From positions 30,001-62,000 of the forward strand of contig JAWBCC010000001.1 in assembly GCA_038823825.1 (NCBI GenBank): a stretch of DNA of 32,000 nucleotides. Reading direction: 5' to 3'. A model generated the notes under the pieces. It was not told where the DNA came from and did not search any database. It saw only the letters and a program-made list of their open reading frames with translations. Both the position numbers and the translations under genes were made by a program. Source of the DNA: Candidatus Hadarchaeales archaeon (GTDB lineage Archaea; Hadarchaeota; Hadarchaeia; Hadarchaeales; Hadarchaeaceae). Below are positions 2,927-29,615 of this stretch, in pieces. Every line of letters starts with the position of its first letter. The stretch's first letter is position 1.

Positions 2927-3838
2927 CTACTGTTTTAATCGCTGTAGATACTCATAGGCTGAAATTGATGCTTTTGCTCCTTCTCCAGCCGCAACTACGA
3001 TTTGTTTTTGTGGGACATTCGTCACATCTCCAGCCGCAAACAACCCATCCACATTTGTACGACATCTTGCATCAACTATTATCTCTCCTTTTTCGTTCAG
3101 TTCTACCAAATGGCGTACAATGTCTGAGTTTGGGATTTGTCCTATTTCGATGAAGACCCCATCCACTGGTAATGTGAACTTCTTTCCTTCTCTTTCGACA
3201 ACAATCTCTTTTACAAATCTATTTCCCAATATCTCCAGTACTTTTGTGTTTGTCAATATCGCGACCTTGTCGCTTTGTATAACTTTCTCTTTCATTATTT
3301 TGTCGCCCTTTAACTCAGAGGAAATTTCTATTAGATATATTTGTCTAGCGATTCTCGTAAGTTGCAAAGTCGCATCAAGTCCAGCATTTCCTCCTCCGAT
3401 CACAGCCACATTTTTGTTCATAAATAAAGGAGCATCACATGTCGCACAATATGTGACCCCACGATTTTTAAATTCGTCCTCACCAGGCACACCTAGTTTC
3501 TTAGGTTCGGTCCCGGTGGCGACTATCACAGATCTGCTTTTGTACCGACCCCTCGTGGTTTGAACTTCAAAACCTTCGGGGATTTTTTCAATATGTTTGG
3601 CCTCTTCGAAAAGAATTGTGATGTTGAAAGCACGGACATGTTCTTCAAATTTTTGGGCTAGCTCAGATCCGGTTATGAACTGATATCCAGTATAATTTTC
3701 TATGTTTGCACTCCAAGCAGCTTTGCCTCCTATGTCTTTTGTTATTAAAACAAAATTTACTCTTTTTCTCGCAGAGTAAATGGCTGCAGTTATTCCCGCC
3801 GGACCGCCACCAACTATAATAAGTTCGTATATCGTCAT
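2927..3838 (-). CDS. trxB: Thioredoxin reductase-like FAD/NAD(P)H disulfide oxidoreductase
   Basis: N-terminal VGGGPAG FAD motif, redox-active CATCD (CxxC), second dinucleotide motif GGGNAG, C-terminal FAAGDV. Its stop is 1 nt from the convergent SepCysS stop. Confidence 0.85.
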   Translation of the reverse strand: MTIYELIIVGGGPAGITAAIYSARKRVNFVLITKDIGGKAAWSANIENYTGYQFITGSELAQKFEEHVRAFNITILFEEAKHIEKIPEGFEVQTTRGRYKSRSVIVATGTEPKKLGVPGEDEFKNRGVTYCATCDAPLFMNKNVAVIGGGNAGLDATLQLTRIARQIYLIEISSELKGDKIMKEKVIQSDKVAILTNTKVLEILGNRFVKEIVVEREGKKFTLPVDGVFIEIGQIPNSDIVRHLVELNEKGEIIVDARCRTNVDGLFAAGDVTNVPQKQIVVAAGEGAKASISAYEYLQRLKQ

Positions 3839-3915
3839 ACATCACCCGCCCTCGATTTTTGTTCCTTTGTTCGGCGCATGTCCGCATCCACACAACTTTA
3901 TCTCAGATAAACCGT

Positions 3916-4293
3916 TTAGCTAGATCCCCAAAGACCGTGGATGTTACAGTATTCCCTCGATTTTACCTGTTCTTCTTGTACTGGAAAGAAAGCTTCTGGA
4001 GCATCGCCAGGCTTAAGGAATTTTCTGTACGATCCTCTATCTGTAACGAGCTCTATCCATTCTATGTAGTGTTTTTCTTCCATCGGATGGGGTATCGAGC
4101 CCACTTTGACTATTACCCCACCTTTAACCCTTTCGATTATCGGGACATGCTTTTCCTTGCCGACATCTACGGTTTTTTCCTGCAAGAGCTCCATCGGTTG
4201 TCCGCAACAAACAAGCTGTCCAGCACCAGCGTGAAGCACGGTCACAATGTTTCCACAGATTTTGCATCTGTATACTTGGCTAATTTCAGTCAT
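3916..4293 (-). CDS. dfx: Desulfoferrodoxin (2Fe superoxide reductase)
   Basis: 125 aa. Centre I cysteines CKICGN...VCCGQPM; centre II ligands in [25 protein letters not shown]. It lies upstream of and co-oriented with the trxB-like gene. Confidence 0.9.
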
Positions 4294-4320
4294 TTCATCA
4301 AAGTACTTCCATGAGCAGCG

Positions 4321-4328
4321 TTTATATA
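4321..4328. promoter_or_regulatory. TATA-box-like element (TTTATATA) in the divergent dfx / thiI-like intergenic region
   Basis: An A/T octamer about 30 nt from the dfx start (4293, implying a near-leaderless transcript) and about 50 nt from the thiI-like ATG (4378). Assignment is by position only. Confidence 0.3.
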
Positions 4329-4377
4329 GATAACGGAGCTTTACCTGTTAATAGCTCGAAAAGCGAGCTTATAGTTG

Positions 4378-5040
4378 ATGGAAAAAGTCATATGCTTAGT
4401 TTCCGGTGGAATAGACTCTCCACTTGCTTGTGCTTTAGCATCGAAAAATTTTGAGATAATTCCACTTCATTTCTGTGTTTATCCTTACGTGAGTGACGAG
4501 ACATTTTTTACAACAATTGAAATTCTCAAGAAGTTGAAAGACAGATTAGACGTAGAAAAAATTCTGATTTTTCCTTGGTCTAAAATTCTGCGCAGAATTT
4601 CTCATGCTGGTGGAAGGTACACTTGTGTTCTTTGCAGAAGGGGGATGCTGAAAGCTGCAGAAGCGTTATGTGAGAGAGAAAAATGTTCGGCGATAGTCAC
4701 CGGGGAGTCAATCGGTCAGAAGGCATCCCAAACTCTTGACAATCTTGCCGTGACATCATTTGGGATCAAGTTTCCGATCATTAGACCACTTCTGACGATG
4801 GACAAACTCGAGATAGAAAGAGAGGCGAGGAAAATTGGAATTTGGAGCGAGAAACATGCCGGATGCTGTACTGTTGTTCCGAGATATCCCTCGACAAGCG
4901 CAAAAACAGAAACTGTGGAACGCTTATTCGCGAAGATCGGATTAGAAAAAGAAATTGAAAACGAGTTGGGCAATGTTGTGGAAATTCGTAGTTTTAAAGA
5001 CGTAGAAAAATTTCAAAATTCACTGAGAAAAGAATCTTGA
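4378..5040 (+). CDS. PP-loop ATP pyrophosphatase, ThiI-like sulfurtransferase lacking the THUMP/ferredoxin-like N-terminal domains
   Basis: PP-loop LVSGGIDSP at the extreme N-terminus; ThiI-type IVTGESIGQKASQTLDNL and IIRPLLTMDKLEIE; cysteines CVLCRR and GCC. ATG at 4378 is preferred over the TTG at 4375 used by the ORF track. Confidence 0.75.
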   Translation: MEKVICLVSGGIDSPLACALASKNFEIIPLHFCVYPYVSDETFFTTIEILKKLKDRLDVEKILIFPWSKILRRISHAGGRYTCVLCRRGMLKAAEALCEREKCSAIVTGESIGQKASQTLDNLAVTSFGIKFPIIRPLLTMDKLEIEREARKIGIWSEKHAGCCTVVPRYPSTSAKTETVERLFAKIGLEKEIENELGNVVEIRSFKDVEKFQNSLRKES

Positions 5041-5049
5041 TTTAATTGT

Positions 5050-5661
5050 TCAAGCAGTTTTTTCCAGAATTTTTCTTATCTGCTTTAATTCCTCCAAGAT
5101 TTCTCTTTCCAGACCCACCTGAGCCTGCGCAAAGAGAGGCCTGTTTTTTACAGATTTTAGGATGATTTCCCGGATTTCCAAAAAATTTGGAATCCCCCAT
5201 ATTGACGCTTCAGCCCCTCTCGTTCCAGGTCCAGCAGTGCCACCAGCGGCCCCAGTGTATCCGGCGGTATATATGTGAACGGATCCCAGACCAAAAAATC
5301 GGGAAATCGGACCCTGTATCACATCAGCACACATAACGCGAGAATAAGGAACTGTATGTTTCATTTTCCACCAAACTCCTCGCTCTACTGTTGTTTCGTC
5401 TTCCTCTATTGTGAAGAAAATAGTGTCGTAGTATCGCGGAATCCAATATGCAACAAACAAAATACCTATTGTGACAATGCCGAGAGGTATAAATGTAAAT
5501 ATTTTGTATTCTCGCCAGATTTCCGGAGCGAATTTGTATGCTCCCCAGACGGGTATGCTAGCAATGAAGAAAAGCGGCAATCCAGCAAGTAAAAGATAGA
5601 TCCCATAGACCTTCTTCAGATTCGGATCGGGTTTGAACTTATTTTGGACCATACTTTTCAC
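5050..5661 (-). CDS. Membrane protein with bacterial-PH (bPH_2, YdbS/YdbT-like) domain
   Basis: Two N-terminal TM helices, then YSRVMCADVIQGPISRFFGLGSVHIYT (bPH_2-like wording), a Gly-rich insert (GAAGGTAGPGTRG), and a C-terminal amphipathic helix. The 4-nt overlap with the upstream gene implies co-translation. Confidence 0.6.
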   Translation of the reverse strand: MKSMVQNKFKPDPNLKKVYGIYLLLAGLPLFFIASIPVWGAYKFAPEIWREYKIFTFIPLGIVTIGILFVAYWIPRYYDTIFFTIEEDETTVERGVWWKMKHTVPYSRVMCADVIQGPISRFFGLGSVHIYTAGYTGAAGGTAGPGTRGAEASIWGIPNFLEIREIILKSVKNRPLFAQAQVGLEREILEELKQIRKILEKTA

Positions 5662-6368
5662 TCAAGTCTCTTTCCACAGTTAGGACAGAATTTTGCCTCT
5701 TTAACACTTATCCCCGCACCACAAAACGGACAGTAGCTCACTCCGGACGCTTTAGGTTGTTTTTCTAAACTTTTCGCGATTCTTTTTAGATAGGGTGCCT
5801 CTGCGTATTCTTCCTGATATTTAAATATAATGTTCTTTACAGCGAATGGATCTTTCACACCATAGACGCAAGTAGATGGGCTAGCAACAGGAACGACTTG
5901 CCCTCCGACTGGCCCTCCGACGACAATAGTTCCGGAAGGTCCTACTCTTCCTCCACCCGCCTGCCATCCGACCATTCCGGTTCCAAGTCCGGATTTCGTT
6001 ATCGGTATTACATTTCCGAAGCCGAAAATCCTACCAATTATGCCTTGGTCTACTACAACATCAGATATGTCGTCGTATTGGATTTGTCTAGATGAGATAG
6101 TTATGAATTTGCGATAGATCACGATTCTTTTATTTGTGAGATAGTAAGTAAACGCTTGTGAGTAAAAAATCACTGCGATTATCCCGATTATTCCGAAAAA
6201 TGTTACTAGTATTCCCAACCACCAGAGATAGCCTAGAAGAATTAGACCGATTATAAAAATGATCCCTGAAAGAATGAAATGGCCCAAAAAAGCTAGCCTT
6301 TGTGGTTTTAAAATTTTTAGTAGCTTTTCTTTTGGGAGTAAAGATATTGGGAGTTTTTCTTGTGCCAT
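5658..6368 (-). CDS. Membrane protein with bPH_2-like domain and C-terminal zinc ribbon
   Basis: Two TM helices, YYLTNKRIVIYRK...DDISDVVVDQGIIGRIFGFGNVIPIT, a long Gly-rich insert, and a C-terminal CPFCG-x11-CPNCG zinc ribbon. Confidence 0.6.
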   Translation of the reverse strand: MAQEKLPISLLPKEKLLKILKPQRLAFLGHFILSGIIFIIGLILLGYLWWLGILVTFFGIIGIIAVIFYSQAFTYYLTNKRIVIYRKFITISSRQIQYDDISDVVVDQGIIGRIFGFGNVIPITKSGLGTGMVGWQAGGGRVGPSGTIVVGGPVGGQVVPVASPSTCVYGVKDPFAVKNIIFKYQEEYAEAPYLKRIAKSLEKQPKASGVSYCPFCGAGISVKEAKFCPNCGKRLE

Positions 6369-6424
6369 TCTGAAAATAATTGTACACTAGGATTTAAAAT
6401 AGATGCTTCTGAGATTTCGAAATC

Positions 6425-6502
<78 letters not shown>

Positions 6503-6576
6503 AACAATCAAATTTTCACATGTTTTCCTCATAAAACTTATTTTTGCCTCTATCGGTATAAAATCGGGGGGCGATC

Positions 6577-7491
6577 GTGAGAAGAAAAGTGATAGAGGTT
6601 AGAAATCTTGTCAAGCGGTATGGCAACATTTTAGCCCTGTCTGGAGTTTCCTTCGATGTCTATCGTGGAGAGATTTTTACAATGGTCGGTCCGAACGGCG
6701 CCGGCAAAACGACTACGGTCGAAATCCTTGAATGTCTTAGAAACCCGACGAGTGGAAACGTGAAAATCTTTGGAATGGATATCGAGGGGCACGAAGAGGA
6801 GATAAAACAGCGGATTGGAGTTTTACCACAGGAATTCGGTACCTTTGAGAGACTTACAGTAGAAGAAAATATTCGCTTTATCGCAAAGATTTATGAACGC
6901 AGAGTTGACGTCTCAAATATTCTTCAGACCCTCGGCTTGCTCGAGCATCGAAAGAGAAAATTTGGAGAGTTATCTGGAGGGATGAAGAGACGCGTAGGAA
7001 TTGCCATGGCTCTTGCATCCTGTCCAGAAATAATCTTTCTTGATGAACCGACTACCGGTCTTGATCCTCAAGCAAGACAGGAGCTTTGGCAAACAATAAA
7101 GAATTTGAGAAAGGAAGGCATGACAATTTTTCTGACTACTCATTACATGGAGGAAGTAGAAGCTCTCGCGGATCGAGCTGCGCTGATTCTCAATGGTAAA
7201 ATATTGATAACGGATTCTGTGCGATCCCTAATTTCCAAGTATGGCGGTGGTTTCAGGGTGTCTATTTCGGAGAAAAGAGGCATAAGAATTTTGAGGAAAG
7301 TCGGCGAAAAAATCGTTCAGCAAGATGGTAAAACAACAGCGTTTTTCAAATCTCGCGAAGACATGCTCGAGGCTTTCCTTTATCTTAGTAGGCATGGTCT
7401 GAAACCAGAAATGAAAGAACCCTCTATGAATGAAGTTTTCCTGAACTTGGCAGGAGGGAGAATAAACGAGCATGGAGAGTTGATACAGTGA
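6577..7491 (+). CDS. ABC transporter ATP-binding protein (ABC-2/DrrA-like)
   Basis: Walker A GPNGAGKTT, signature LSGGMKRR, Walker B IIFLDEPTTGLD. GTG start. Confidence 0.9.
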   Translation: MRRKVIEVRNLVKRYGNILALSGVSFDVYRGEIFTMVGPNGAGKTTTVEILECLRNPTSGNVKIFGMDIEGHEEEIKQRIGVLPQEFGTFERLTVEENIRFIAKIYERRVDVSNILQTLGLLEHRKRKFGELSGGMKRRVGIAMALASCPEIIFLDEPTTGLDPQARQELWQTIKNLRKEGMTIFLTTHYMEEVEALADRAALILNGKILITDSVRSLISKYGGGFRVSISEKRGIRILRKVGEKIVQQDGKTTAFFKSREDMLEAFLYLSRHGLKPEMKEPSMNEVFLNLAGGRINEHGELIQ

Positions 7492-25328: not shown

Positions 25329-25775
25329 TTACCGAGGTTTTCTCATCAGATTTCCAATCATTACACCCATTGCTCCTCCTATCCCAGCAAGCATGATATC
25401 TCGGAGAATCATGAAAGCGACGACAGAGCAGAATTCGCCAAGTCCAACGATTATATCGGGATCCCTTAAGCCGATGAAGAGCCCGAGAGCTAACAGGGTG
25501 GAAAGGTTCATGAGAAGGCCGGACATTCCCCCTCCTTTGAATCCGTCCATTGCTCCTCTCCCGGTTTTCGATAAAAGGTAGCCGGCGAGCATGCCGCCGA
25601 TCAACAATCCAAAGAGTCCAATACCAAAGAATTGACCGATTAGTCCCATCATTAGGCCGTAGATGACTGGACGCATGAAGCTCTTGTCGCTCCTAATGGC
25701 GAGGAGGACAAAAAGTATGAGCCAAGTTAGCCCGGCGAAGATAGAATATCCGACGAGGAATGCTGTGTCTGTCAC
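25329..25775 (-). CDS. Hypothetical Gly-rich integral membrane protein (4 TM helices)
   Basis: Hydrophobic pattern with GxxxG-rich helices. No family assigned. Confidence 0.6.
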   Translation of the reverse strand: MTDTAFLVGYSIFAGLTWLILFVLLAIRSDKSFMRPVIYGLMMGLIGQFFGIGLFGLLIGGMLAGYLLSKTGRGAMDGFKGGGMSGLLMNLSTLLALGLFIGLRDPDIIVGLGEFCSVVAFMILRDIMLAGIGGAMGVMIGNLMRKPR

Positions 25776-25840
25776 GGAGAATAATGGAATAGATGGATTT
25801 TTACCTTTTTCTGAGGGTTTTCACTTTAAGCTAGTAGCCA

Positions 25841-25870
25841 CTTTCAATCCCATTTTCAGGGACGTTTCGC
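25841..25870 (-). repeat. Solitary CRISPR-repeat-like sequence (half repeat carrying the ATTGAAAG 5'-handle)
   Basis: The minus strand reads GCGAAACGTCCCTGAAAATGGGATTGAAAG. The last 16 nt (AAAATGGGATTGAAAG) equal the 3' end of the Archaeoglobus-type repeat GTTGAAATCAGACCAAAATGGGATTGAAAG as I recall it. The first 14 nt are diverged. No second copy was found at spacer distance. Confidence 0.4.
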
Positions 25871-26071
25871 CACAACTGTTGTATGATGTGTTCAGGCATC
25901 AAAGAATTAGGACGTATTTTGGAGGCAAAAAAAGGGAAAAATGTAAAAAGATTGGAATTTATAGTACGGGAAAGAGTCCTAAACCACTTGTAGAACCCCA
26001 CCGTGCTCGTTTTTTCTTTAAAAAGGACCTCCACCCAGAAGATTGAGGGGGAGAAAAATGAGTCATGCTAG

Positions 26072-26824
26072 ATGCCGAAAATATTTAGACTACATGAGAA
26101 GAGTATTTTTATGAAAGAAGGGATTTATATGAAAAATGAACGTGAACTCAAATTTCCCGACGATTTTATCAACAAAATAATTTGTGGTGATTGTTTTGTA
26201 TTAATCAAGAAGATACCAGATGGTTGTGTTGATGCGATTATCACCGATCCCCCTTACGGATTGTATAAGGAAGGAGTATGTAGCGATGAAGATTTGACTA
26301 CTTTCTATAAAGTGCTCCCCGAATGCTACAGGGTTTTAAAAAAGAATGCTTTTTTTATAACATTTTTTAGCACAAAATTTCTTCCCAAGTTATTTAAGAA
26401 TAATCCCTTCACTTATTTTTGGCAAATTATACTCTACTGTCCAGAGGGAGCAGTTAAATCACCAATAGGGATTACAAAGTATATGTCTTGTCTTGTTTTC
26501 AAAAAAGGAAATCCACGGATTGTTTTGCGAAATAAAGATATTTTTGTTGATACTCCTGGAAAAATGATTGAACCTGACGAAGGCTTCATAAATCATCCGA
26601 CCCCAAAACCAAAACATTTCATAAGGGAGATTCTACGAATGTTTACAAAGGAGGGAGATCTAATCCTAGATCCTTTTATTGGTAGCGGAAGCACTGCGGT
26701 AGCTTGTAAACAATTAAACAGACGGTTCATCGGTTTTGAGATCAACGAAAAATATTGCCAACTTGCAAATAGAAGATTATCATCACTTAATCTTTTTTCT
26801 AAAAAAAAGATTCAACTGCGATAA
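26072..26824 (+). CDS. DNA methyltransferase, beta-class N4-cytosine/N6-adenine (N6_N4_Mtase family)
   Basis: Motif IV IITDPPYG precedes HPTPKP and AdoMet motif I DPFIGSGSTAVAC...FIGFEINEKY (beta-class circular order). Start is ambiguous: 26072 (longest), 26111 (coupled to a uORF stop) or 26129. Confidence 0.85.
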   Translation: MPKIFRLHEKSIFMKEGIYMKNERELKFPDDFINKIICGDCFVLIKKIPDGCVDAIITDPPYGLYKEGVCSDEDLTTFYKVLPECYRVLKKNAFFITFFSTKFLPKLFKNNPFTYFWQIILYCPEGAVKSPIGITKYMSCLVFKKGNPRIVLRNKDIFVDTPGKMIEPDEGFINHPTPKPKHFIREILRMFTKEGDLILDPFIGSGSTAVACKQLNRRFIGFEINEKYCQLANRRLSSLNLFSKKKIQLR

Positions 26825-26854
26825 CTAGTTCTTCTTTGCGAATAGAATCCTAAG

Positions 26855-27529
26855 TTAAACGCCATGAAACTTTTTCACAATAGATACGATGTCTTTCAAA
26901 TGCTTCTTGGACATCACGGAGAATCCTTTCATGAGTTCAATGATATGTTCTTCTGTGGGGAACCATAATACCACCTCATTTCGGTGTGCTGGTCTATCTA
27001 CTATAGGATTACGATCAAGTTTAGATATAACACTTCTTATCGGAATAAAGATATATAACATAGCCTGATATCCTACTGCTTTCTGTTTGTGTCTTAGTTC
27101 AATATGAATAAATGATCCGTCCGACAGCTGTTTTCTTAAGATTGGCGCTTTCTTGTACAGTAAGGTAAATCCTTCGAATTTCTTGGCTTTCTCGTCTTTT
27201 TCTATATTGATAAAAAAAGTTTCCTCGAAGAAAACATCTCTATTTTTTAGATAACTGTATAATTCTTTTATCCTAGCTTCATTTATTACTTTTTTAGTGA
27301 CTAATAATCTAAACATTTCCCCTAACTCCACAAGCCGCCTATTTTCATCAAAGTAAGAAATCTGCCATTCTATATACCAATTCTCTCTTAAATTTTGTGA
27401 TCTAACGCTACCTATTGGACTTCCATCTACATCTTTAACTCTAACTAAACTTGTTTGTAAAGTAATGGGCAACTCTACGACGATTTTTCTCGCCTTCTCG
27501 TCATAAAATACATTACATTTGATATTCAT
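26855..27529 (-). CDS. Hypothetical protein, 224 aa (candidate effector/endonuclease of the RM-like operon; function unknown)
   Basis: GGAGG RBS 7 nt before ATG 27529; last gene of the MTase operon; convergent with the beta-class MTase. I could not find a PD-(D/E)xK, HNH, GIY-YIG or PLD motif by eye with any certainty. The only weak candidates are D..IHIELRHK and NIEKDEK. Confidence 0.65.
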   Translation of the reverse strand: MNIKCNVFYDEKARKIVVELPITLQTSLVRVKDVDGSPIGSVRSQNLRENWYIEWQISYFDENRRLVELGEMFRLLVTKKVINEARIKELYSYLKNRDVFFEETFFINIEKDEKAKKFEGFTLLYKKAPILRKQLSDGSFIHIELRHKQKAVGYQAMLYIFIPIRSVISKLDRNPIVDRPAHRNEVVLWFPTEEHIIELMKGFSVMSKKHLKDIVSIVKKFHGV

Positions 27530-27752
27530 TTTCGCTTCCTCCCGTTCTCAAACATTTTCCAACCTTTGAGACAACAAAGAATGTCTTTAATTCTTGATAG
27601 GCTACTATTTTAAAAAAATCACGCTTCTGGATTTGGTGGTCTAAAATTTTGTCCGCAGATTTTTCGCCATTTATTCTATTTTTCCACAACTTTTTAGTTT
27701 GAGTTGAAGAAAATCCTACAACGATTTTATTTTCTTCAACTTTTACTCTCAT
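27513..27752 (-). CDS. Hypothetical protein, 79 aa
   Basis: Its ATG overlaps the MTase stop (ATGA, 27749-27752), and its 3' end overlaps the 224-aa gene by 17 nt. No recognisable motif. It could instead be the N-terminal part of a frameshifted longer gene. Confidence 0.5.
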   Translation of the reverse strand: MRVKVEENKIVVGFSSTQTKKLWKNRINGEKSADKILDHQIQKRDFFKIVAYQELKTFFVVSKVGKCLRTGGSENEYQM

Positions 27753-29233
27753 AATTTTTCTTCTCCTGATATTTTTTCGACCATTTCAATGGCTTTCTGG
27801 AAAATTTTTCTCGCCCTGTCCTCATTTTGTTGTCTGCACTTTATCATTTCTAGATAGTATTCTTTGAATTTTTGCAATTGGGCCTCAGAGGGAATTGGAA
27901 CAACCAAATTTTTCAATAGGCGTTGTGGTATTGTAACTGTTCCAACACCTCTTTTCAACGCGTTTATTTGAGAAGTTCCATATTTTGATTGCAAGTAAAA
28001 CGCCAAGTAGTATGCAAGCGATTCTTTCTTTGGTCTGATGATGTATATCCAATCATCGGCAACTCCTTGTTCATCTGGCGTAGTAACAACTGCAGCTCTA
28101 CCTATACAACCAACGCCCACGCGAACAAAAAGAAGATCACCTATTTTGACATGCGCTTTTGGGTGGTACATCTCGCTGTTTGGGTCGATATAGTGTCTGC
28201 CTCGATTCTCTCTGCTAAAATCTATTCCCAAAGGAGTAACAGTTTTCGCAGAAATGAAGCGAACCCCTTTAGTTACGAATTGCCTTTTTGGCCCATATTT
28301 TGTTTTTCCACAAAACATTTCCGAAACTAGCTCGCCCAACTTCACTATTTTTTGATTGCTCTTCAAGTGGATGGGTACAAAGTAAAATTCTGGGGACAAG
28401 ACATCAACATTGGTTTTAATCCAAAATGCTGGAGGGTTATTCATCTTTTTTTTCTCTTGGTAAGCCCTCAGAACTAAAGAAAGGTCTTCAAGCTTGTTCA
28501 CTATTCCCATGAAGATATTACCATCATCATTTTCAGCATCCTTTTTTGCGAACAAAACATTAGTTTTTGACGTCGTGTTTTTTGTCCCCCGAAATATTCC
28601 TCTTGGAAGGGAGATTATGCCAAGAATCGAAGTGTTACTATTGATAAATTCTCGCACATCTTGAAGTAAAACATTAGAAAAGATGCTTGAAGGTAGGATA
28701 ATTCCTATCACTCCACCACTAGAGGCCAACTGTATAAACCGCTCTAGAAAAAGGATTTCTATTGCTTGACTTTTTCTCCCTTTCCCAAGTTCAAATTTTG
28801 ATAAAATTTCTTTGTCCTTTACTCTCCCATATTTCGCACTAAAAGGAGGATTACCCACTACGATGTCTGCATGTCCCTCCAATTCTTCACTTAATGGAAG
28901 GAGCCCATTTCTCGGAGCAAAAATCTCGCATGCAGTCTTCAGATTGTCGGGTATTATACTCTCGTCAATATCGATTCCTACAATCCGATTGATTTTTTTC
29001 TTGATTAAAGCTTTAAGGAAAACCCCATCGCCGCAAGCAGGATCAATGGCAAGTTTGGGTCTGCGATCCAAAGATATGACTGCGAAATCTACTATGAAGT
29101 TTGCTACTTCTGGGGGGGTCATGAACTGTCCAAACACCTTTTCTTTTCTCGCAAAGTGTTTTTCTTTTTGATTAATTTCTTTCAATATTCTTCCCCTTAA
29201 GTTCGTTGTGGGATAAGCTTCGGGTTCATACAT
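27749..29233 (-). CDS. N6-adenine DNA methyltransferase (gamma-class) fused to a single HsdS-like target recognition domain
   Basis: Motif X GQFMTPPEVANFIV, motif I AIDPACGDGVFL, motif IV VGNPPF. The C-terminal ~190 aa have type I S-subunit TRD wording (KLGEL...G.T....., IGDLLFVRVG, IPSEAQLQKF plus a conserved helix). GAGGAG RBS. Confidence 0.85.
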   Translation of the reverse strand: MYEPEAYPTTNLRGRILKEINQKEKHFARKEKVFGQFMTPPEVANFIVDFAVISLDRRPKLAIDPACGDGVFLKALIKKKINRIVGIDIDESIIPDNLKTACEIFAPRNGLLPLSEELEGHADIVVGNPPFSAKYGRVKDKEILSKFELGKGRKSQAIEILFLERFIQLASSGGVIGIILPSSIFSNVLLQDVREFINSNTSILGIISLPRGIFRGTKNTTSKTNVLFAKKDAENDDGNIFMGIVNKLEDLSLVLRAYQEKKKMNNPPAFWIKTNVDVLSPEFYFVPIHLKSNQKIVKLGELVSEMFCGKTKYGPKRQFVTKGVRFISAKTVTPLGIDFSRENRGRHYIDPNSEMYHPKAHVKIGDLLFVRVGVGCIGRAAVVTTPDEQGVADDWIYIIRPKKESLAYYLAFYLQSKYGTSQINALKRGVGTVTIPQRLLKNLVVPIPSEAQLQKFKEYYLEMIKCRQQNEDRARKIFQKAIEMVEKISGEEKL

Positions 29234-29527
29234 CTTCTCCTCAAAATATTATTAAGAGATGAGTAAAAATAAAATTTAACCCCCCGCTGGCCAGTCTCCT
29301 CATTCGGGGCAAATCATCTCTCAAGCCCAAGAAAGACTCCTATAGTCGAGTCCAGAAAATCGAAAGGAAGGACGGAGACCAGCACCCATCCTCTCCAGCC
29401 TCTTCCTTCCAAGGATATCTTCACTTCCTGGAAGAGATGACCTCCTCCGGGGAGGCCCCTTAAAGCAAATCTTGGTGGAGAAAGGGGGAATTGTAAGCTC
29501 CCAGAAGGGAGATTTAAACAAGTTAGA

Positions 29528-29615
29528 TGGTGCGGGGGAGGGGATTTGAACCCCCGAACCCCTACGGGACCAGCGCCTCAGGCTGGCACCTTTGACCTGG
29601 CTCGGCCACCCCCGC
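29528..29615 (-). tRNA. tRNA-Leu (anticodon GAG), long variable arm, CCA encoded
   Basis: Reverse complement GCGGGGGTGGCCGAGCCAGGTCAAAGGTGCCAGCCTGAGGCGCTGGTCCCGTAGGGGTTCGGGGGTTCAAATCCCCTCCCCCGCACCA. The anticodon loop is CTGAGGC. Confidence 0.92.

Follow-up and report, generated by a model that had tools for sequence, protein, structure and literature searches.

A predicted PabI-type restriction-modification cassette with a second methyltransferase and a broken HALFPIPE paralogue in Candidatus Hadarchaeales

The closest described counterpart of the locus considered here is R.PabI/M.PabI from Pyrococcus abyssi, a restriction-modification (RM) pair directed at GTAC. Homologues of M.PabI are gamma-type methyltransferases with a C-terminal target-recognition domain (PMC4615327), and a 2015 survey distinguished two gene orders in the PabI family: the methyltransferase gene is upstream of the restriction gene and co-oriented with it in the bacterial lineage, while the two genes are arranged tail-to-tail in the archaeal lineage (PMC4615327). 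R.CcoLI and R.HpyAXII from Campylobacter and Helicobacter belong to the same family, and R.CcoLI has an insertion that follows the catalytic Tyr and carries Lys71, the AP-lyase residue (PMC7806768). A further point of comparison is provided by type II systems with two methyltransferases, e.g. DpnII with DpnM and DpnA as well as many type IIS systems, in which methyltransferases of different classes lie on either side of a single restriction gene. According to a 2023 review, PabI homologues are found only in Helicobacteraceae, Campylobacteraceae and a few hyperthermophilic archaea.

The cassette described here lies in a window of 32,000 nucleotides (the whole stretch of DNA that was analysed) from a Candidatus Hadarchaeales genome, where it adjoins a tRNA-Leu gene (Table 1). 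Like R.PabI/M.PabI, it pairs a PabI-like protein (R1) with a gamma-class adenine methyltransferase bearing a C-terminal target-recognition domain (M1), and it resides on a mobile island, in place of which a sister genome has different DNA. Unlike in the Pyrococcus pair, M1 is located upstream of R1 in the same orientation, which is the same-strand order of R.CcoLI and R.HpyAXII, while a second, beta-class methyltransferase (M2) holds the tail-to-tail position and the remnant of a second HALFPIPE paralogue (X) is situated between M1 and R1. The host, a member of the Hadarchaeales, differs as well.

Table 1. Features of the cassette and its surroundings (window positions).
Feature	Position	Strand	Description
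M1	27749-29233	minus	494 aa, gamma-class N6-adenine DNA methyltransferase with C-terminal HsdS-like target-recognition domain
79-aa ORF	27513-27752	minus	X remnant; homologous part 27565-27752 only (about 62 codons)
R1	26855-27529	minus	224 aa, PabI-family (HALFPIPE) restriction DNA glycosylase, predicted
M2	26072-26824	plus	beta-class N6/N4 DNA methyltransferase; NCBI start at 26111
tRNA-Leu (anticodon GAG)	29528-29615	minus	found with ARAGORN; the island is bounded by its 3' end
Low-GC strain-variable island with RM cassette	25884-29527	not assigned	from GC content and blastn against L032

The three minus-strand reading frames had been singled out in an original prediction made from the sequence, and their layout is as described there. 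GAGGAG stands 3 nt upstream of the M1 ATG at 29233, the M1 stop and the start of the 79-aa ORF share an ATGA, and the 79-aa ORF overlaps the R1 ORF by 17 nt. The GGAGG before the R1 ATG is likewise present, at a measured spacing of 8 nt instead of the 7 nt given. The convergent M2, which is separated from R1 by a 30-nt gap and lies outside the coordinates of that prediction, was missed there, as were the low-GC island and the tRNA-Leu boundary. A scan for sigma-70 promoters and terminators, a procedure unsuited to an archaeon, returned counts equal to the shuffled expectation.

What the prediction had presented was an undescribed defence module with an effector licensed by methylation, whose components could not be placed in any family. 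The defence module and the licensed effector stand, but the effector can be placed: the 224-aa protein R1 matches a characterised type II restriction family, that of R.PabI, in agreement with its NCBI name ('R.Pab1 family restriction endonuclease'). By sequence comparison, R1 is a full-length homologue of this HALFPIPE restriction DNA glycosylase, with scores of 36.2 bits for Pfam PF09522 (cut-off 25), an E-value of 8.7e-32 for the PADLOC profile REase_II PDLC03538 (residues 13-221 on profile positions 15-222 of 226), 2.7e-29 for R.PabI itself (PDB 2dvy, residues 13-221 on 15-222) and 9.5e-8 for R.CcoLI (PDB 7cfa). Identity to R.PabI is about 37-40%. Y59, H210 and D213 of R1 align with the catalytic Y68, H211 and D214 of PabI, and K148 is the equivalent of PabI K154 (for residue roles in R.PabI and R.CcoLI, see PMC7806768 and PMC7229829). 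This triad is invariant in the 12 homologues aligned, as are E54, W55, Q56, K148, Q149, Q155, M157 and F203. A dN/dS of 0.12 against the related cassette L030 indicates purifying selection. Direct reading of R1 and the 79-aa ORF reveals no PD-(D/E)XK, HNH, PLD, GIY-YIG or P-loop motif. A lack of classical nuclease and ATPase motifs had been observed before, and it is accounted for by the PabI family, since its enzymes have none. R1 and R.PabI both lack the beta-sheet insertion that bears the AP-lyase lysine in R.CcoLI; hence, strong AP-lyase activity is not expected of R1.

The predicted reaction of R1 is the excision of adenine at unmethylated 5'-GTAC-3', most probably its recognition site. 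Nine of ten base-contact residues are identical in R1 (R30, E54, Q56, I57, Q149, Q155, M157, Y159 and F203 are retained), which supports GTAC specificity without proving it. The set was derived from R.CcoLI K17, R19, E47, Q49, I50, Q158, Q164, M166, Y168 and F215 (PMC7806768), with the CcoLI numbering transferred to PabI by motif spacing. The single change concerns the guanine pocket, where PabI K30 is replaced by L28, so that the specificity of R1 could differ. Avoidance of the site was considered as a test of specificity and dropped: over the 32-kb window, GTAC has an observed/expected ratio of 0.76, a mild deficit no stronger than that of GATC, GGCC or CGCG, and 32 kb is uninformative in this respect.

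M1 had been described as a gamma-class N6-adenine methyltransferase with an HsdS-like target-recognition domain, and this description holds. Motif I reads DPACGDG and motif IV reads NPPF in the translated sequence, Pfam returns N6_Mtase (1.9e-20), Eco57I (9.7e-12) and, weakly, Methylase_S, and the PADLOC profile MTase_II PDLC03311 is matched over the full length (2.2e-133). The PDB matches are the BsaXI, BseCI and TaqI methyltransferases, NCBI names the protein 'N-6 DNA methylase', and dN/dS against L030 is 0.10, again indicative of purifying selection. Located directly upstream, M1 supplies the adjacent adenine methyltransferase expected of PabI systems. By its architecture, it is the probable M.PabI-type partner of R1. 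Assignments of M1 to MADS, BREX or type I RM were rejected on NCBIfam scores far below the respective cut-offs (MAD2, 76 versus 720 bits; PglX, 23 versus 500 bits; hsdM, 32 versus 243 bits), and no partner genes of these systems (HsdR, PglZ and others) were found within the island.

M2 is assigned to the N6_N4_Mtase family (PF01555, 1.2e-33, 117.4 bits versus a cut-off of 26.7), with DPPY (motif IV) at about residue 59 preceding FIGSGS (motif I, FxGxG) at about residue 203. It matches PADLOC MTase_II (1.4e-39) and, in the PDB, CcrM, MboIIA, DpnA and N4C methyltransferases; DpnA-like and CcrM-like beta-class enzymes are its closest solved relatives. In over 12 distinct loci, an M2 orthologue (330-500 bits) lies beside a homologue of R1, and dN/dS against L030 is 0.07 (purifying selection), which marks M2, at the level of sequence, as a conserved member of the cassette. 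It probably protects host DNA as well. The arrangement of one restriction gene flanked by two methyltransferase classes is that of DpnII and many type IIS systems, but in contrast to these the restriction component here is a predicted base-excision enzyme.

The 79-aa ORF, previously regarded as a novel component, turns out to be a deletion remnant. An exhaustive phmmer search of 1.8 billion representatives retrieved only the query itself and P0018, a 201-aa protein that represents intact X, with 53% identity between residues 1-59 of the query and 1-60 of P0018 (E 8e-9). In the blastn alignment, a segment of 547 nt in L030 (5193-5739) is replaced by 42 nt in the window (27523-27564); the sequence of X beyond codon ~64 is deleted, and the last ~15 codons of the ORF are junction sequence running into the R1 gene. 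A 3-nt loss has in addition removed a conserved Trp codon and with it the nearly invariant EW motif. Amino acid identity of the 79-aa ORF to intact X is 58%, compared with 76-81% among intact X N-termini, and its nonsynonymous divergence is about twice theirs. The ORF does not display full-length X homology with the EW..Y, KQ and F..S..H positions, has no match in Pfam, NCBIfam or the PDB, and shows in these searches no helix-turn-helix of a type II RM controller (C) protein. On the sequence comparison, it is the leftover of a ~200-aa gene, X, after a deletion of ~505 bp, and is no working component. As the frame is still open into the R1 start, it may only serve to couple R1 translation to M1.

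X itself is, judged by profile comparison and modelling, a distant, un-annotated HALFPIPE paralogue of ~200 aa that is intact in related cassettes, among them L030 and L028. Comparison of X with the PabI family by hhalign gives a probability of 97.5% (E 7.8e-12), and the AlphaFold2 model (pLDDT 92.9) has R.PabI and R.CcoLI as its only significant PDB matches (TM-score 0.70); the alignment underlying this model combined X with PabI-family sequences and is therefore biased toward the PabI fold. An earlier model from a shallow alignment of 9 sequences was unusable (pLDDT 48.7). The kinship is visible only by profile-profile and fold comparison, as an HMM search of the X profile against PDB sequences gave no significant match. 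X retains the Tyr/His, KQ and Phe positions and is devoid of an equivalent of Asp214 and of several base-contact residues. Two further candidates were rejected as X: a 199-aa gene downstream of M1 in L007 with an X-like 'IEWQI' motif (hhalign probability 0.9%), and a 183-aa gene in L002, the fold likeness of which is confined to the first ~43 residues.

Apart from the deletion, M1-X-R1-M2 is collinear with L030 at 78-79% nucleotide identity, the homology being limited to window positions 29173-25982. Across 20+ loci, homologues of R1 are accompanied by M1 alone, by M2 alone or by the two together. R1 appears to be independent of X, because many loci combine intact R1 and both methyltransferases without X (L005, L014, L015, L018 and L009). 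The same loci led us to reject the notion of two stacked RM pairs (M1 with X, R1 with M2), and no X-specific methyltransferase was found. An EVE gene is located upstream of M1 in L002, L003, L005, L007 and L030 and is absent from the window.

The island of 3.64 kb starts at the 3' end of the tRNA-Leu gene and has a GC content of 33-41%, versus 45-50% in the flanks. Its edges were set by the blastn breakpoints against the sister-strain contig L032, which is 99.4% identical down to window position 29527 and again from 25883; between these breakpoints, the ORFs of L032 (2.16 kb) are unrelated and of membrane and ion-channel type. A search of the island's flanks for att-like repeats, direct or inverted, gave only short, chance-level matches. 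By comparison with L032, the island is strain-variable.

Taken together, the segment adjoining the tRNA gene is very probably a horizontally acquired type II RM cassette of the PabI (HALFPIPE) family. By homology with R.PabI, R1 would act as a homodimer that bends and unwinds its site and flips out guanine and adenine. Breakage at the resulting abasic sites would then come from heat, from a weak AP-lyase activity or from AP endonucleases of the host. M1, with its own target-recognition domain, would be the M.PabI-type protecting partner, and N6-adenine methylation would protect the host DNA, including the 4 GTAC sites within the island, and so license a toxic, DNA-damaging effector.

That a self-marking methyltransferase licenses novel 79-aa and 224-aa effectors of no known family would fit their shared lack of classical nuclease and P-loop motifs and the empty domain searches of the 79-aa ORF, but is extremely improbable given that the former product is a truncated HALFPIPE paralogue and the latter a full-length PabI-family protein with intact triad, named as such by NCBI. 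A functional 79-aa product that stands in for a controller protein, be it as a regulator or as an N-terminal piece of the HALFPIPE fold able to modulate R1 or bind DNA, would fit an open frame that is linked to both neighbours, by ATGA to M1 and by the 17-nt overlap to the R1 start; moreover, residues 1 to ~60 of X form N-terminal beta-strands of the fold in the AlphaFold2 model. The isolated position of the ORF in the phmmer search, the loss of the EW motif, the accelerated nonsynonymous divergence, the 15 junction-derived C-terminal residues and the lack of a helix-turn-helix or other domain all speak against this, and we regard such a function as quite improbable.

Alternatively, the cassette might be decaying, with R1 inactive or dependent on X, so that the locus works as one or two solitary methyltransferases. 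X has been cut to 62 homologous codons without the conserved Trp, the EVE gene of several relatives is missing, R1 is frameshifted in L016, L019 and L023, and inactivation of the restriction gene is frequent in the PabI literature (PMC4615327, PMC10273834). Yet the R1 ORF of the window is intact, retains its catalytic and contact residues with the exception of K30 and evolves under purifying selection, and X is dispensed with in the five loci named above, which makes decay improbable. A more substantial, though still unlikely, alternative is that R1, as a PabI-family glycosylase, recognises a sequence other than GTAC and that M1 and M2 differ in the site or base that they methylate. It is favoured by the low identity to R.PabI, the altered guanine pocket, the conservation of two methyltransferase classes and the lack of distinctive GTAC avoidance, and is opposed by the nine base contacts shared with R.PabI and R.CcoLI (PMC7806768) as well as by the recognition of GTAC by all characterised family members (PMC10273834).

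The module as such is an ordinary PabI-type RM system, in which a second methyltransferase and the broken copy of a related gene are the unusual features. It adds one archaeal member to the base-excision restriction enzymes, a small family with an unusual mechanism, and illustrates the mobility of RM systems beside a tRNA gene. PabI homologues occur in numerous phyla of uncultured bacteria and archaea, usually together with two methyltransferases, and the HALFPIPE paralogue family X had previously been un-annotated. The set of glycosylase, two methyltransferases and X that is conserved in the relatives is the only part worth pursuing. Tentatively, and with more doubt than confidence, this cassette family may represent an undescribed multi-component base-excision restriction system that combines a PabI-type glycosylase with two methyltransferase classes and, in fuller forms, an EVE-domain protein and X. 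Conceivably, X would then act as a second subunit or regulator, for example by heteromer formation, altered specificity or control of toxicity, while the methyltransferases would guard different bases or DNA states, and the version in the window would be a derived one, after loss of X and EVE.

The 224-aa protein R1, for which the original prediction had seen an unrecognisable effector, is a member of the PabI restriction enzyme family. It passes the Pfam RE_R_Pab1 profile with 36.2 bits (threshold 25 bits) and matches a type II REase profile of PADLOC across its whole length (8.7e-32). In a comparison with crystallised R.PabI (2dvy, E 2.7e-29), its residues 13-221 pair with 15-222, and it aligns with R.CcoLI (7cfa) as well. 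Since NCBI already names it 'R.Pab1 family restriction endonuclease' (MEM1688937.1), R1 falls into a characterised restriction family, which is the outcome that the original prediction itself had named as speaking against it. R.PabI-family enzymes adopt the HALFPIPE fold and are sequence-specific DNA glycosylases, not phosphodiesterases. [quoted passage not shown] The R1 counterparts Y59, H210 and D213 are invariant across 12 homologues, as are E54, W55, Q56, K148, Q149, Q155, M157 and F203. Nine of the ten base-contact residues given for R.CcoLI and R.PabI (PMC7806768) are identical in R1 when their numbering is carried over by motif spacing, the sole change being PabI K30 to L28, which makes GTAC a likely, if not proven, specificity. 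While R.CcoLI harbors an insertion bearing an AP-lyase lysine, R1 lacks it and thus resembles the thermophilic R.PabI.

The three predicted minus-strand ORFs are present, along with the ATGA at the junction of the M1 methyltransferase (MTase) gene with the 79-aa ORF and the 17-nt overlap of the latter with R1. A GGAGG motif precedes the R1 ATG as well, at a distance of 8 nt rather than the proposed 7 nt, and GAGGAG lies 3 nt ahead of the M1 ATG. Three features had been left out: a fourth gene, M2, which converges on R1 with a gap of 30 nt, the low GC content of the block (33-41% vs 45-50% in the background), and the adjoining tRNA-Leu(GAG). By eye, an AT-rich TTAAATTTTATTTTT box (29265-29279, minus strand) with a preceding G-run can be discerned ahead of M1, ~32-46 nt from its ATG. 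Plausibly an archaeal BRE/TATA promoter, it would yield a short leader that contains the GAGGAG.

Coordinates of features in the window and in homologous loci
Feature	Locus	Coordinates	Strand	Remark
M1, gamma-class MTase, 494 aa	window	27749-29233	minus	ORF
79-aa ORF	window	27513-27752	minus	ORF
R1, PabI family, 224 aa	window	26855-27529	minus	ORF
M2, beta-class PF01555 MTase	window	26072-26824	plus	DPPY ... FIGSGS
tRNA-Leu(GAG)	window	29528-29615		directly upstream of block
109-aa ORF	window	25717-26046	plus	NCBI call
Collinear block 1	window / L030	29173-27565 / 3584-5192
Collinear block 2	window / L030	27522-25982 / 5740-7294
X	L030	5001-5612
X	L028	5001-5615
X	L026	5001-5606
X	L003	5692-6309
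EVE-domain gene	L002	3011-3424
EVE-domain gene	L003	2999-3421
EVE-domain gene	L005	2223-2567
EVE-domain gene	L007	4279-4749
EVE-domain gene	L030	3090-3500
Island replacement	L032	8910-11069		349-aa membrane protein, 216-aa ion-channel-like protein, 78-aa membrane ORF

M1 was correctly proposed to be a gamma-class N6-adenine MTase with a target-recognition domain: it contains the motifs DPACGDG and NPPF, matches Pfam N6_Mtase and Eco57I as well as PADLOC MTase_II (2e-133), and its C-terminus is weakly Methylase_S-like. M.PabI homologues have been described with this architecture, being gamma-type and carrying their target-recognition domain at the C-terminus (Kojima and Kobayashi, PMC4615327). 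Relative to the homologous locus L030, dN/dS amounts to 0.10 for M1, 0.12 for R1 and 0.07 for M2, in contrast to the decay seen in the 79-aa ORF (below).

The 79-aa ORF had been regarded as a novel component, and it indeed gave no match in Pfam, NCBIfam and PDB searches and retrieved only itself in a word-indexed search. Exhaustive phmmer against 1.8 billion representatives returned, besides the ORF, a single protein, P0018 (201 aa), a member of a ~200-aa family termed X, whose residues 1-60 are 53% identical to residues 1-59 of the ORF (E 8e-9). The loci L030/L031 exhibit the gene order of the window, with an EVE-domain gene that the window lacks followed by M1, X (203 aa), R1 and the convergent M2. 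L030 and the window are collinear in two blocks of 78-79% nucleotide identity, between which 547 nt of L030 correspond to 42 nt of the window; this difference marks a deletion of ~505 bp, which took away the spacer between X and R1 along with codons ~65-203 of X. The ORF also lacks the conserved Trp codon of the EW motif and is only 58% identical to X of L030, compared with 76-81% for the N-termini of intact X proteins encoded in more distant loci, which points to further decay. Together, the homology to P0018, the deletion and the Trp loss rule out a novel component; judged by its sequence, this 'gene' is a fragment of a pseudogene, a deletion remnant of X.

X itself carries no Pfam annotation. 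When the R1 and X alignments were compared as profiles (hhalign), the probability was 97.5% (E 7.8e-12, 168 columns), and the invariant positions common to both correspond to PabI P23, E63, W64, Y68, K154, Q155, F204 and H211. An AF2 model of P0018 built on the joint alignment, which includes PabI-family rows, reached pLDDT 92.9 and pTM 0.89; a model from an X-only alignment was unusable. In the PDB, the former significantly matched only chains of R.PabI and of R.CcoLI (E 4.6e-7, TM-score 0.70); the hit ranked below them had E 0.2. X lacks an equivalent of Asp214, an acidic residue usually being located one position earlier, and also of Gln65, Gln161 and Met163. Hence, X is a divergent R.PabI paralogue that is possibly non-catalytic or of different specificity. 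Its members (P0018-P0026) always reside within cassettes containing a PabI homologue and two MTases. As intact copies of X occur in four distinct loci (L003/4/8, L026/27, L028/29 and L030/31) and many triads of R1 and two MTases have none, X is an accessory gene without an MTase of its own.

Cassettes were annotated in the window and the fetched loci through L031 using HMMs for R1 and X and phmmer for M1, M2 and the EVE-domain protein. R1 homologues are accompanied by both a gamma and an M2-type beta MTase in the window, L002, L003/4/8, L005, L007, L009, L014, L015, L016, L018, L026/27, L028/29 and L030/31, by gamma M1 only in L010, L012, L019 and L022, and by M2 only in L011, L017 and L020/21. 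Gene order varies, and the gamma MTase of L009 and L026/27 is shorter (~375 aa) and divergent. In five PabI-type cassettes, a gene for a small, PUA-like, modified-base-binding EVE domain lies directly upstream of the gamma MTase gene, often overlapping it. A second MTase or a paralogue is mentioned neither in a 2023 review (PMC10273834) nor in a 2015 survey (PMC4615327). According to a scan of genome contigs (L008-L025), the hosts, represented by MAGs, comprise archaea (Hadarchaeota, Methanobacteriota, Woesearchaeota) and bacteria (Chloroflexi, Poribacteria, WOR-3, Elusimicrobia, CPR (Saccharibacteria/Parcubacteria), Armatimonadota, Clostridia, Bacteroidota), a broader range than that review states; the PabI homologues of L016, L019 and L023 are frameshifted. 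M1 of L013 (Acidilobaceae MAG) is ~90% identical to M1 of L015 (WOR-3 MAG), which suggests that the gene crossed between domains very recently or that a contig was binned wrongly.

The sister-strain metagenome contig L032 follows the window at 99.4% identity from 32000 down to 29527, immediately past the 3' end of tRNA-Leu, and identity resumes at 25883. In between, 2.16 kb take the place of the 3.64-kb RM island (25884-29527), and the tRNA-Leu-adjacent site is thus a strain-variable hotspot; no att-like repeats of the island were found. Similarly, PabI of P. abyssi is substituted at the orthologous site in P. horikoshii (PMC4615327). A 109-aa ORF devoid of Pfam hits starts just outside the island and crosses its boundary at 25883; the DNA shared with L032 encodes its N-terminal portion and the island its C-terminal portion. 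It may reflect a gene broken by the insertion or an erroneous annotation.

Mechanistically, R1 would remove adenine from unmethylated GTAC in incoming DNA, with strand breaks arising from the resulting abasic sites, while host sites would be shielded by m6A from M1 and probably also M2. The overlaps between M1, the 79-aa ORF and R1 suggest translational coupling, so that R1 would only be made downstream of M1. The window contains 40 GTAC sites, four of them within the island; the observed/expected ratio of 0.76 reveals no distinctive avoidance, which fits recent acquisition and is otherwise uninformative. Taken together, the module is not undescribed but a PabI-family base-excision RM system, and public annotation already lists it as one. 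Two points still merit interest: that two MTases are conserved companions of R1, and that related cassettes contain X, a HALFPIPE paralogue so far un-annotated.
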